This document shows positions 1 through 36,620 of a stretch of DNA of 36,620 nt, piece by piece. The translations under genes and the position numbers were made by a program. The DNA is taken from positions 1 to 36,620 of the IMG/VR virus record IMGVR_UViG_2675903417_000002. One strand, 5' to 3'. Every line of letters begins with the position of its first letter. The first letter of the stretch is position 1. Under the pieces are notes generated by a model, which worked only from the letters and a program-made list of their open reading frames with translations, was not told the DNA's origin and did no database searches. The stretch comes from a virus. Its lineage: Duplodnaviria > Heunggongvirae > Uroviricota > Caudoviricetes.

Positions 1-228
1 CAATTAAAACAGCAAGTTATCAGTCTAAACAGAACACCAACGGGATGGAGGAGAGACAAAAAATATCCAATGAAACCGTAGCGCGTCAGCATTCAAAAGC
101 GGGGTTTCTTATTTTTACTTCACCAGTAACAAATACACTGTATCATAACTACATAAAAATGATTGTTCTGACTCAGATGAATTTCTTACTCTTGTAGAAT
201 GTCACTTAATGTTATTTATAGGTAAACA

Positions 229-2118
229 ATGAAATCCGAAACGCTAACCATCCAGCAAATTTTCCAAAATCAACGACAATATCGTGTTCCATTCTATCAA
301 CGTGCCTACGTATGGACGCAACGAAACCAATGGTCAGCTTTGCTGGAGGATATCTTCGAAAAAGCACAGAGCCGACTTTCGGGAACAAAACCAACCCCTC
401 ATTTCCTCGGCGCGGTGGTGCTGGAACCTCAACTCAAAAACAGCTTGTTAGGTGTAGATACCATACATATTATTGACGGCCAGCAACGTTTAACCACTCT
501 TCAATATATTCTGGCATCCATTCGATTATCATTGCGTGCTACAGGCCTTTCTGAACTGGAAGGGTTAGTATTGACTTGCTTGAAAAATACAAACGAAGCA
601 ACGATGAGAAATAAAAAGGTAGAATGCTTCAAACTGTGGCCAACTTTTCGAGATCAAACTCATTTTATTCAAAGTCTTAATGTTGATAATATTGACGATC
701 TCCGTAATGTATTTTCTGATAGCTTCACGCAACATGGTACGTTACGTAAACATTTCAACCACCCGCCGTCACTAGAGGCATTATGGTTTTTTACTGAAGC
801 CTTTATAAAATGGATTAAAATAGAAAACCGCTCACCACAAGAAAATGCTGTAGCACTAATTGAGGCTGTCTTGACGGATCTGAAACTGGTAAGCATATTT
901 CTCGAAGCTGAAGATGATGCCCAAATAATTTTTGAAACATTAAATGGGCGAGGAGCGGAACTTCATGCAACGGATCTTATTCGCAACTATATCTTTATGT
1001 GCGCTGAGCATGAAAATATTAATACTATTGAATTATATGAAAATGAGTGGAAGATCTTTGAAGATAAATACTGGTCGGAAAAGCAACGCCGTGGACGTAT
1101 TAATAAACCACGCATGGAGTGGCTTGTACATGCGACATTGCAATCAGAAAGGCAGCGTGAAATTGATCTGTCTCGCCTTTACAATGAGTATCGTGATTAT
1201 GTAAGTAAGGACTTGCCTTCACAACGAGCAGATCTGCAAGTAAAGCGCCTCAAACAATATGCATCACAATATAAAGAATTGGTTGGTGGTTTTGGCACAA
1301 CCCCCATCTCACACTTTGGACATCGCATCGCAGCCTATGATGTGACGACACTCTATCCGCTTGCTTTGTTCATTTCGATAGCTAACATCGCCGATGATGA
1401 GAAAGCAGCCATGTATAATGATCTTGTCTCCTACGTAGTACGAAGAGCCGTATGTGGCCTGACGCCAAAGAATTACAACAATGTATTTATGAATGTATTG
1501 CGACACTTGTCTAAAACGGAAATTTCCAGTATTGAGTTACGTAATATCCTCAATAGCTTAAATGGCGAAGCCTCACGTTGGCCTGGGGACTCAGAATTTC
1601 TCAACGCTTGCATCAATGCTCCACTTTATCCTGGCAGGCTCGACGCACCGAAAATGCGCTCAATGTTAACGGAACTTGAAAGAGAACTTTGTCGCCAAGT
1701 GAAGACAGAAAAGCCTGATGTTCCAAATCTTTCTAATCTCGATATCGATCATCTTATGCCTCAAAGTTGGTATTCCTGTTGGCCTCTCGAAAATGGTCAT
1801 ATGGTGACAAATTCAGATGCTACGGTAATGAACCAAATTGTTCTGTCTGGAACCGATCTTACCCCTGAACAGCTACTGGTAAGGAAACGGCAACAAGCGA
1901 TAGCTACGTTGGGAAATCTAACTTTGCTTAACCTTAGCGTAAACCGTTCCGTTCAGAATGCTGTATTTCTGAAAAAACGTGATGCTCTCATCGTCCACAC
2001 CAATCTACGACTGAACATACCACTTATACTTAAGGATAAATGGGATGAGAGTGAAATACTGGAGCGAGGTAAAAAGTTGGGGGAAATTGCATTGAAAGTA
2101 TGGCCAAAATACGATTAA
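229..2118 (+). CDS. GmrSD-family (DUF262 + DUF1524) type IV restriction endonuclease-like defence protein
   Basis: 629-aa ORF; N-terminal DUF262 motifs (VPFYQRAYVW, IIDGQQRLTTL at nt 475-489) and C-terminal DUF1524 His-Me finger-like motif (DIDHLMPQSW at nt 1741-1770); AGGT RBS before ATG 229; AT-rich relative to the phage structural genes. Confidence 0.7.
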   Translation: MKSETLTIQQIFQNQRQYRVPFYQRAYVWTQRNQWSALLEDIFEKAQSRLSGTKPTPHFLGAVVLEPQLKNSLLGVDTIHIIDGQQRLTTLQYILASIRLSLRATGLSELEGLVLTCLKNTNEATMRNKKVECFKLWPTFRDQTHFIQSLNVDNIDDLRNVFSDSFTQHGTLRKHFNHPPSLEALWFFTEAFIKWIKIENRSPQENAVALIEAVLTDLKLVSIFLEAEDDAQIIFETLNGRGAELHATDLIRNYIFMCAEHENINTIELYENEWKIFEDKYWSEKQRRGRINKPRMEWLVHATLQSERQREIDLSRLYNEYRDYVSKDLPSQRADLQVKRLKQYASQYKELVGGFGTTPISHFGHRIAAYDVTTLYPLALFISIANIADDEKAAMYNDLVSYVVRRAVCGLTPKNYNNVFMNVLRHLSKTEISSIELRNILNSLNGEASRWPGDSEFLNACINAPLYPGRLDAPKMRSMLTELERELCRQVKTEKPDVPNLSNLDIDHLMPQSWYSCWPLENGHMVTNSDATVMNQIVLSGTDLTPEQLLVRKRQQAIATLGNLTLLNLSVNRSVQNAVFLKKRDALIVHTNLRLNIPLILKDKWDESEILERGKKLGEIALKVWPKYD

Positions 2119-2164: not shown

Positions 2165-2343
2165 TACTCACTATTAAATCCTTTAATTTGCATCAAGAAC
2201 AGCACTGTCAGCCCTAGGCTCTCGGACTTTGTACCGCTTATCTTGTCTTCAAAAATCAGCTCGCATCCTGCACAGTTCAACGCATTACGTTGTAGATCTG
2301 TGTTCTGGTCATTTATTGATACGCGTACATAGCCAATAAGCAT
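2164..2343 (-). pseudogene. pin: Degenerate remnant of a Gin/Pin/Hin-family serine DNA invertase (N-terminal ~42 aa conserved, then divergence and stop)
   Basis: Translation MLIGYVRVSINDQNTDLQRNALNCAGCELIFEDKISGT matches the invertase N-terminus including the catalytic Ser region, but the ORF stops after 59 codons where ~185-190 aa is expected; ATG at 2341-2343. Confidence 0.7.
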
Positions 2344-2423: not shown

Positions 2424-2948
2424 GGCTCTGCATTACCTGTTGGTGTCCCTGTTCCGTGGCCTTCAGCCACTCCGCCAACAGGCTGGCTGAAATGCAACGG
2501 AGCAGCTTTTTCTGCTGAAGAATACCCGGAACTGGCAAAGGCTTACCCGACAAATAAATTGCCAGATTTACGTGGTGAGTTTATTCGTGGCTGGGATGAC
2601 GGGCGTGGTGTGGATGCGGGACGTGCCTTGCTAAGTCTTCAGGATGACTCTTTTGAAGCGCACAGGCATGAGTCCTTTTTTTACGCGGGTATTTCTCGCA
2701 ATGAAATACCATTAAAAAATCTTCCAAGTTCAGACGAGATGCTGACTTTAAGTTCTACAACTAATGCCTTGTCCCCGGACGGTATTGATGCCACTAATTC
2801 GTTAATTGGTAATGATGATTACAACTGTCTGATTGAAGGAAATAAAAATAACAAACGAACAGCGACGGGGTTGAGCACCAGTATTGTCGGTGCAGCAGAG
2901 ACCCGTCCACGTAATATTTCATTTAATTACATTGTGAGGGCTGCATGA
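2411..2948 (+). CDS. Alternative (currently unfused) tail-fibre C-terminal variable segment
   Basis: ORF 2370..2948 carries the GLGEG crossover-encoded peptide then a tail-fibre/collar-like C-terminus; sits inside the invertible segment in opposite orientation to the expressed fibre gene. Confidence 0.55.
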
Positions 2949-3550
2949 TGTATAACGCCATCTTAAATAATAAATTTATTGCCACAAAGGCAGGAGAGAT
3001 TACCGTTTATAACTATGACAGTGAGACACGGGAGTATATTTCTGCATCAACTGAATATCTTGCTGTGGGTGTCGGTATCCCTGCATATTCCTGTTTAGAT
3101 GCTCCTGACACACATAAGGTTGGTTATGCAATCTGCCGTTCGGCAGATTTAAACTCATGGGAATATGTGCCAGACCATCGCGGTGAAGTTGTCTATAACA
3201 CCGAAACGGGAGAATCAAAAGAAATCACAGCTCCGGGTGATTACCCTGAAAATACAACCACTATCGTCCCGTTAACGCCATACGATAAATGGGATGGTGA
3301 GAAATGGGTGACAGATACTGAGGCACAGCATAGTGCCGCAGTAGACGCGGCAGAAGCACAGCGCCAGTCGCTGATTGATGCTGCAATGGCTTCCATCAGT
3401 CTGATTCAACTGAAATTACAGGCCGGGCGGAAGCTGACGCAGGCAGAAACAACCCGATTTAACGCCGTGCTGGATTACATTGACGCGGTGACGGTAACAG
3501 ATACCAGCACCACGCCGGATGTCATCTGGCCTGAACTGCCGGAGGCGTAG
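2945..3550 (+). CDS. Tail fibre assembly protein (partner of the alternative fibre C-terminus)
   Basis: 201-aa ORF starting [25 protein letters not shown], typical Tfa N-terminus; overlaps preceding ORF by 4 nt. Confidence 0.7.
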
Positions 3551-3950
3551 GCCATTCAATATCGGGTGCTGTTGAAGTATCAACACGCATCAGCAGCACA
3601 CGGTATTTCTTCCATTCGGTGAGAGTTGAAGTTTCTTCATCAGTTGCGATATCAGCATCAACAGCATCCTGACGCCAGGATATTTCACTGTCAGCTTTTT
3701 CCCGTAATTGGGATTTTTTAACTTCAGCAATAGCTATTAATTCCTTTTTGGTCGGCTGAGGAATATCTATCAGTGCTGGTTTTCCATTCAGTGTTCCAAT
3801 CTGTTTTCCTGGTGGAATATCCGTAAATAACTTTTTATGTTCTTCCTCACTGACTATTACACCATCATCAGGCCACAGACCTGATGCCTCAAATTTTTCT
3901 TTCTCCGATATGGGGAAAAAGCCATTTGCTTTAGCGCTCCATACGTACAT
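3522..3950 (-). CDS. Tail fibre assembly protein (partner of the expressed fibre)
   Basis: 142-aa ORF directly downstream of the expressed tail-fibre gene; Tfa-like sequence; convergent with the other Tfa as in Mu G / e14 P segments. Confidence 0.7.
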
Positions 3951-35574: not shown

Positions 35575-35602
35575 CTAGTGAAATAGTTTTGTAGCAAAAG
35601 AA

Positions 35603-35863
35603 ATGAGGTTATCAAAAATGCTTCAAATGCTGACACTTGAGGAATGGGCTGCGGAAAAATTTAGGAGTAATCCTCCAAGTGTGTCCACATTGCGTCGTTA
35701 TGCTAAGCAGAATTTATTTTGTCCACCGGCAATGAAACAAGGTCGACTATGGCGAGTACGTGAGGACGCAGAGTTAGTTGGGGAATTAGTTACTCCTGTC
35801 ATCAAGAAAAATGATTCTATTATTCTACAAAGGATTTTAAGTAATGGCAGCCAGACCACGTAA
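35603..35863 (+). CDS. xis: Excisionase (lambda Xis-like)
   Basis: LTLEEWAAEKF...LRRYAKQNLFCPPAMKQGRLWRVRE resembles lambda Xis; overlaps the int start. Confidence 0.65.
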   Translation: MRLSKMLQMLTLEEWAAEKFRSNPPSVSTLRRYAKQNLFCPPAMKQGRLWRVREDAELVGELVTPVIKKNDSIILQRILSNGSQTT

Positions 35864-36500
35864 AAATAATGTTTCAGTCCCGAACTTGTATCCACTCTAT
35901 AGCAGAAAAGTAAATAAAGTTTATTGGCGATATAAGCATCCAGTGACCGGGAAGTTTCATTCTTTGGGCACAAACGAAGCTGAAGCCATTGCTATTGCCA
36001 CTGAGGCCAATACACGCCTGGCTGAGCAAAGAACCCGGCAGATTCTGGCTATCAGTGACAGAATCGCAACCAGCAAAGGAAAAGCAATCACAACGTCAAC
36101 CTGGTTAGATCGCTATCAAGCAATCCAGGATGACAGACTGAAAAGTGGCGATATAAAGCTCAATACCTATAAACAGAAAGCCAAACCAGTATCCTTGCTC
36201 AGGGAACGAGCAGGACTGAAGTTAATTTCAGCCGTTGATGTCAGGGATATAGCCCAGTTGCTTGACGAGTATATCGCCGTCGGACAGCCGAGAATGGCGC
36301 AAGTAGTTCGTTCCGTCCTGATTGATGTATTCAAGGAGGCGCAACACTACGGAGAAGTCCCCCCGGGCTATAACCCGGCATTAGCCACCAAACAGCCCAG
36401 AAGAAAAATTACCCGACAACGGTTAAGTCTTGAAGAATGGCAAAAAATCTTTGAAATCGCAGATGCCAGTCATCGTTATATGGGGAATGGGCTTTGTTGA
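35844..36500 (+). pseudogene. int: Tyrosine integrase, N-terminal ~218 aa only (catalytic domain missing)
   Basis: N-terminal and core-binding region align with lambda Int (PNLY..., WLDRY...), but all three frames hit stops between 36498 and 36519. Confidence 0.55.
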
Positions 36501-36545
36501 ATAAATCAGATTTCGGGTAAGTCTCCCCCGTAGCGGGTTGTGTTT

Positions 36546-36620
36546 TCAGGCAATACGCACGCTTTCAGGCATACCTGCTTTCGTCATTTTGTTCAGCGCT
36601 CGTACCAGGGCCATAGCCTC
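36546..36620 (-). CDS. 3' end of an unidentified minus-strand gene entering from beyond the window
   Basis: Open frame from the window edge ending ...KMTKAGMPESVRIA then TGA at 36546-36548; only 24 codons visible. Confidence 0.25.
   Translation of the reverse strand, partial: EAMALVRALNKMTKAGMPESVRIA

Follow-up and report, generated by a model that had tools for sequence, protein, structure and literature searches.

Organization of the integrase locus

The stretch of DNA analysed here, referred to below as the window (36,620 nucleotides), carries near its right end an excisionase gene, the 5' part of an integrase gene (int) and one end of an insertion sequence (Table 1). An exact match to the 218-aa integrase product identified the window as the entire draft contig JXVP01000047.1 (36620 bp) of assembly GCA_000948675.1, for which a literature search returned no paper. 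A second sequence from the same assembly, taken from contig JXVP01000009.1 and designated L008, runs from the 3' half of int through icd and phoQ. The int open reading frame begins with ATG and occupies 35844 to 36500 on the plus strand, giving 218 aa, exactly as an earlier note on this DNA had reported. That note had also found no catalytic domain in the frame, and Pfam bears this out: PF00589 is absent from the window ORF, while in intact IntE it spans residues 193-365. The lambda-Int arm-binding domain PF09003 is found at residues 1-73 of the window ORF (E=8.5e-38) and is likewise present in intact IntE. The excisionase gene, whose longest ORF starts at 35603 and whose gene call is the shorter one listed, overlaps the start of int by 20 nt, and a xisE gene is annotated at the homologous position in Escherichia coli STEC388.

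Table 1. Features at the right end of the window (window coordinates; L008 is the sequence from contig JXVP01000009.1)
Feature	Coordinates	Strand	Remarks
xisE-type excisionase	35618..35863	+	81 aa as in relatives; PF07825 Exc, E=2.1e-12; intact
intE 5' part, codons 1-215 plus 1 nt	35844..36489	+	Arm-binding domain and most of core-binding region; without catalytic residues
Left copy of 9-bp target-site duplication, TGGGGAATG	36481..36489	.	Same 9 bp at L008 179-187
IS-derived tail of int ORF	36490..36500	+	After G at 36489 reads G/GG CTT TGT TGA, ...G-L-C-stop
IS903B terminal 131 nt	36490..36620	-	131/131 identity; contig ends within element

The first 215 residues of the window product are identical (215/215 aa) to those of the 376-aa IntE of STEC388, and divergence begins at residue 216, so that only the final three codons and the stop differ. 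At the DNA level there is 100% nucleotide identity to STEC388 intE up to 36489 and none past it. In a three-way alignment, intE extends to ...ATGGGGAATG (36489) and IS903B begins with GGCTTTGTTG (36490), and the ORF ends at 36500 because its frame runs directly into the inverted repeat of the element. Alignment of intact IntE to lambda Int (PDB 1z1b, E=4e-57) places catalytic residues at R226 (lambda R212), K249 (K235), H330 (H308) and R333 (R311); the remaining two are the histidine in LLGHK and the tyrosine in DRYHDD. All six are located beyond residue 215, that is, after the break, and the series R-K-H-R-H-Y does not occur in one polypeptide in the window. Judged by sequence, domain order, adjoining xis and the icd site, the gene is an e14-type intE; it belongs to that family by descent, disrupted though it is.

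Identity of the sequence beyond the break point

All 131 nucleotides from 36490 to the edge of the window are identical to IS903B (E=5e-62), with matches in more than 5000 plasmid records whose copies are annotated 'IS5-like element IS903B family transposase'. They correspond exactly to positions 1-131 of the 1057-bp IS903B on plasmid Rts1 (NC_003905). This reference copy has GGCTTTGTTGAATAAATC at one end and the reverse complement of that repeat at the other, and encodes a transposase that carries PF13737 and PF01609 (Pfam) and stops 57 nt from the end of the element. In the window the same 18-bp inverted repeat lies at 36490-36507, and its reverse complement is found at L008 161-178.

A minus-strand ORF entering from the window edge and ending at 36546 had been described in the earlier note and read there as a flanking gene of the host. 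A coding segment of 24 residues does end at that position, with the stop at 36546-36548 and the last 24 codons at 36549-36620, and this end coincides with the stop of the IS903B transposase (Rts1 reference position 1557). The segment is the C-terminal end of that transposase, not a host gene, and it appears to enter from the edge because the contig stops inside IS903B.

The behaviour of the two sides of the break point in other genomes is equally distinct. When window positions 35600-36620 were compared by megablast with 5426 complete E. coli genomes, 414 genomes matched up to 36489, in genes annotated intE and xisE, and none of these matched past that position; the bases after 36489 have thousands of matching places on chromosomes and plasmids, as a mobile repeat behaves. 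A frameshift or sequencing error whose correction would restore a full-length integrase, a possibility raised in the earlier note, was rejected: the DNA after 36489 is unrelated to int throughout and is identical to IS903B. IS903B is 1057 bp in length and makes 9-bp direct repeats (PMC10513040). With 131/131 nt (window) and 178/178 nt (L008) identical to the Rts1 copy, 18-bp terminal repeats at both ends and a 9-bp direct duplication flanking them, the element at 36490 can be assigned to IS903B by its sequence, its inverted repeats and its target duplication.

The remainder of the integrase gene on a second contig

The other side of the insertion is found on contig JXVP01000009.1. Positions 1-178 of L008 are exactly positions 880-1057 of IS903B, in the same orientation as the IS end in the window, and the following nine bases (179-187) are TGGGGAATG, the same 9 bp that precede the IS at window 36481-36489 and that occur as a single copy in intact intE. 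The integrase gene resumes at L008 188, so that int codons 217-376, which hold the catalytic domain, lie on this contig, with the catalytic residues encoded at L008 190-672. The 3' part of int has not been deleted; it lies on a different contig of this assembly, next to the opposite end of IS903B and the 9-bp duplication. When window 35844-36489 is joined to L008 188-672, an uninterrupted ORF of 1131 nt (376 aa) results, and the int reconstructed in this way, with the IS and one duplicate removed, has a 1-nt mismatch to STEC388 intE. Together the two contigs cover 309 of the 1057 bp of IS903B, and the interior of the element is on neither; the window contig ends 131 nt into the IS because the short-read assembly broke within multicopy IS903B.

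An insertion model forecasts, for the far side, an IS903B end followed by a 9-bp duplicate and int, with Met217 as the first start codon and a 160-aa product. That product, forecast ahead of any look-up, was found as an exact sequence in the protein collection, encoded at the end of JXVP01000009.1. NCBI E. coli assemblies also pair a partial N-terminal Int with the 160-aa fragment, the two having neighbouring accession series. The same int/IS903B junction occurs in Logan assemblies of at least four other runs (L004-L007, all ending ...ATGGGGAATGGGCTTTGTTGAATAAATCAGATTTCGG). L008 and L009 show the reciprocal junction with the duplicated 9 bp, as does L011, which has a nested IS; L010 starts within the duplicated 9 bp and is trimmed at the IS boundary. 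In all, the int::IS903B allele recurs in about ten public assemblies, one of which contains the nested element, an IS110-family member. For the samples that carry the junction, no contigs with an uninterrupted int were returned. The exact junction 39-mer CATCGTTATATGGGGAATGGGCTTTGTTGAATAAATCAG had 0 matches in genome contigs of GTDB representatives, and among the 5426 complete E. coli RefSeq genomes none carries the junction and none covers more than 87% of window 35600-36620.

Prophage ends at the icd site

The order of genes on L008 following the 3' piece of int is a D12 methylase, an AAA_15/AAA_21 ATPase, icd, rluE, nudJ, mnmA, hflD, purB and phoPQ; intact relatives have the same layout with different cargo between int and icd. 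About 210 nt of L008 (3419-3628), comprising the last ~165 nt of icd and ~50 nt downstream, share 94.8% identity with the icd fragment displaced to the opposite end of a closely related prophage in strain 20KM0223N, the fragment of that strain serving for the comparison since the counterpart in this genome lies outside the window. Similarity to the 20KM0223N fragment is lost at about L008 3630-3636. These comparisons put the int-side end of the prophage ~165 nt inside icd, about 3.45 kb past the IS and, with the IS counted, roughly 4.5 kb to the right of window 36489. The prophage-host junction that the earlier note had placed at 36480-36545 is thus the boundary of an IS, and the real one lies in icd.

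At the opposite side, window positions 1-300 are identical to 20KM0223N sequence 660-870 nt inside the prophage, counted from the displaced icd fragment and iraM, and the other prophage end accordingly lies to the left of window position 1. The layout of 20KM0223N would put the icd-derived repeat 660-870 nt left of that position. In line with the suggestion to look for att core repeats, L008 (int 3' half through icd and phoQ) was compared by BLAST with the full length of the window; there was no match, and the icd-derived repeat is therefore absent from it. The window is wholly internal to a prophage of ~42 kb, and neither att site is contained in it. An Exc-family gene adjacent to int, the 3' end of icd as the site and a duplicated icd 3' segment (by comparison with 20KM0223N) are all found here. 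On integration, e14 takes the place of about 163 bp at the 3' end of icd (PMC6379469), and the similarity seen here fits this mode of integration. The left contig end, which likewise falls inside the prophage, ~660 nt from the displaced icd fragment by the 20KM0223N layout, is without IS sequence.

A probable single IS903B insertion and its alternatives

We consider it highly probable that one IS903B insertion split an e14-type intE, that the contig broke in the IS, and that the 3' part of int consequently came to lie on another contig. In the proposed sequence of events, IS903B (IS5 family, 1057 bp) would have transposed into codon 216 of intE in an SfV/SfII-like myovirus integrated at icd of E. 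coli, duplicating 9 bp (TGGGGAATG) and cutting int into two pieces. The 5' piece retains the arm-binding and core-binding regions and reads three codons into the IS before a stop, which yields the ORF of 218 aa; the 3' piece comprises 160 codons with all of the catalytic residues. The multicopy nature of IS903B then led the short-read assembly to break inside the element. We infer from the IS ends that the two contigs are joined through one copy of the element: the ends are of opposite type, in the same orientation and flanked by a perfect 9-bp duplication, and a single copy is the simplest reading of this arrangement.

The link itself is a part of the element that neither contig contains, both stopping inside the IS, and this leaves room for a different history in which IS903B entered int and the halves are now apart or the insert is larger than one IS. 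It could be a composite with cargo between direct IS903B copies, or the halves could have been parted by an inversion or translocation when another IS903B copy later recombined with this one. IS903B is multicopy in Enterobacterales (a query including IS903B matches up to 46 places per E. coli genome), and in another sample an IS110-family element has hit this IS copy, an indication that the locus keeps changing. However, the left-hand IS end holds the C-terminal side of the transposase and the right-hand one its N-terminal side, and the two face the same way, as they must in a single copy; the flanks hold a perfect 9-bp duplication. In Tn903 the IS903 copies are in inverted orientation, and the arrangement of ends seen here is unlike that. 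Such a larger or rearranged insert is therefore improbable in our judgement.

The remaining two readings fare far worse. A deletion at the right boundary between prophage and host, with the catalytic half lost and a host gene flanking the truncated int, is the reading in line with the earlier note, and it would account for the fact that no frame of the window continues into a catalytic domain and that unrelated sequence follows the break. The data nevertheless refute it: the flank is IS903B and not a host gene, the catalytic half is found on another contig of the assembly, following the second IS end and a copy of the 9-bp duplication, host genes begin only at the actual junction inside icd, 3.45 kb further on, and the int and icd genes of intact relatives have cargo genes between them. 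An assembly artefact, in which an IS903B end was misjoined to an intact, uninterrupted int, might be suspected since misjoins occur at contig ends in repeats and the window is a draft contig, but we give it almost no credence, as the identical junction is present in independent assemblies from different pipelines (NCBI and Logan; L003-L007) and the reciprocal junction with the duplicated 9 bp in L008, L009 and, with the nested IS, L011.

Consequences for the integrase and the prophage

The integrase is very probably inactive, because the break parts the DNA-binding domains from all six residues of the catalytic set; this assessment rests on domain content. The catalytic 3' piece has neither the upstream arm- and core-binding domains nor an obvious expression signal of its own. 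From established tyrosine-recombinase biochemistry together with the distribution of domains, loss of both recombinase activity and excision would be expected, and the lack of a contiguous Int would lock the prophage in place. The earlier note had likewise held the integrase to be probably non-functional, a conclusion that stands with a different cause, an IS insertion instead of truncation at a boundary. Its description of the prophage as grounded is also upheld, in that excision without outside help is probably beyond this prophage, since Int lacks the catalytic domain. This strain is predicted to carry a nearly complete SfV-like prophage at icd whose excision would occur only with Int supplied in trans or upon precise loss of the IS.

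It is conceivable, though we think it quite unlikely, that int::IS903B is more than simple decay and could be maintained as a 'lock' on a prophage loaded with defence genes, a GmrSD type IV restriction enzyme at one end and a methylase plus an ATPase at the other, so that a successful E. coli lineage retains it; if so, IS903 would insert preferentially at this site in int.

Comparison with known systems

The closest parallels to the insertion are mgrB::IS903B and cirA::IS903B in Klebsiella, which have the same terminal sequence, 18-bp repeats, a 9-bp duplication and a disrupted coding sequence (PMC10513040; PMC13618097). Unlike these inactivations, the target here is a prophage integrase in E. 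coli and not a chromosomal resistance-related gene, and int::IS903B is without a known selected phenotype. Insertion of IS elements into prophage genes and prophage 'grounding' are well known (PMC6379469), and int::IS903B is an already known kind of event, in which nothing departs from known kinds. Being a routine route to prophage immobilisation, brought about here by one of the commonest IS in Enterobacterales, it is of small biological importance. The more general lesson concerns draft assemblies: when a gene 'stops' at a contig end with an unrelated ORF beside it, the usual cause is a repeat that interrupts the gene and at which assembly broke off, and such a stop is no basis for inferring a prophage boundary or a deletion.

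The integration module itself resembles those of e14 (IntE/XisE) and phage-21-type integrases, which likewise have arm-binding and core-binding domains followed by the catalytic R-K-H-R-H-Y order and share with this prophage an Exc-family excisionase gene overlapping the start of int; RefSeq names the homologues of the window genes intE and xisE. In e14 the genes lit/ymfD/ymfE lie between int and icd, whereas a D12 methylase and an AAA ATPase occupy that place here. In contrast to e14, moreover, int is split by IS903B, and the prophage is a ~42 kb SfV/SfII-like myovirus and not a 15-kb remnant. Both elements occupy the 3' end of icd and provide a replacement for it of ~165 nt (163 bp in e14; PMC6379469). 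The grounded prophages e14, Rac and DLP12 also exemplify loss of excision as a step in domestication with defence cargo kept (PMC6379469), and the present prophage would share both traits. Unlike those E. coli prophages, it has structural, lysis and regulatory genes that, apart from int and pin, look full length by ORF size; this prophage would be at a very early stage of decay, reversible in principle.

The prophage, its cargo and further signs of decay

Window positions 12000-36489 are 97% identical over 86% of their length to vB_EcoM-689R6, a record of a predicted 43-kb prophage, and large blocks are 96-98% identical to the Shigella phages SfV, SfII and SfI. On these similarities the prophage is an SfV-like myovirus whose int/xis module, located at icd, is of the e14 type. 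The vB_EcoM-689R6 record (ON470584.1), although entered as a 'phage', holds the host genes icd, rluE, nudJ, mnmA and hflD, and therefore represents a prophage prediction extending past the att site and not the genome of a packaged phage.

Window 229-2118 (plus strand) encodes a type IV methyl-directed restriction enzyme of the GmrSD type (DUF262/DUF1524), which is of full length and matches PADLOC mREase_IV over 1-629 of 629 (E=0). It is located at the prophage end opposite int, the position of mcrA in e14. Two further cargo genes lie between the 3' fragment of int and icd (L008 662-3301). The first, a D12-class adenine methylase that overlaps the int stop by 11 nt, has PD-Lambda-5_B as its best PADLOC match (E=2e-121); the second, an AAA_15/AAA_21 ATPase of 569 aa, weakly matches PtuA, AriA and GajA-type ATPases. 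Since the genes found between int and icd differ among related prophages, the interval is a variable defence-gene slot.

The structural, lysis and regulatory modules had been called apparently intact in the earlier note, which holds as far as ORF size goes, the genes being of full length; the exception is pin, also a remnant. This Pin/Hin-type serine invertase remnant (window 2197-2343, minus strand) has ~41 invertase-like N-terminal residues (MLIGYVRVSINDQNTDLQRNAL...), and its homologue in 20KM0223N is annotated 'missing C-terminus'. On one side of it is the GmrSD gene and on the other a tail-fibre segment that looks invertible and contains two tail-fibre assembly genes facing in opposite directions, at 2945-3550 on the plus strand and 3522-3950 on the minus strand. 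We regard the fibre switch as probably frozen, a second sign of prophage decay.

An IS110-family element nested in IS903B

In one sample with the int::IS903B allele (SRR17770098, Logan, L011 1-41), an IS110-family element is nested in the IS903B inverted repeat. Comparison of L011 with L013 240-1631 places the nested element 9 bp from the tip of the repeat (...CCATTCCATT/AACAAAGCC/TGGGGAATG). A different IS at the int site of this sample was considered and rejected, the odd end being the IS110-family element nested in IS903B, as in E. coli ABWA45, which shows the same nesting. A 31-mer spanning the nesting junction occurs in 218 E. coli genomes at 288 places, with up to 15 per genome, which suggests that the IS110-family element targets the IS903 terminal repeat.
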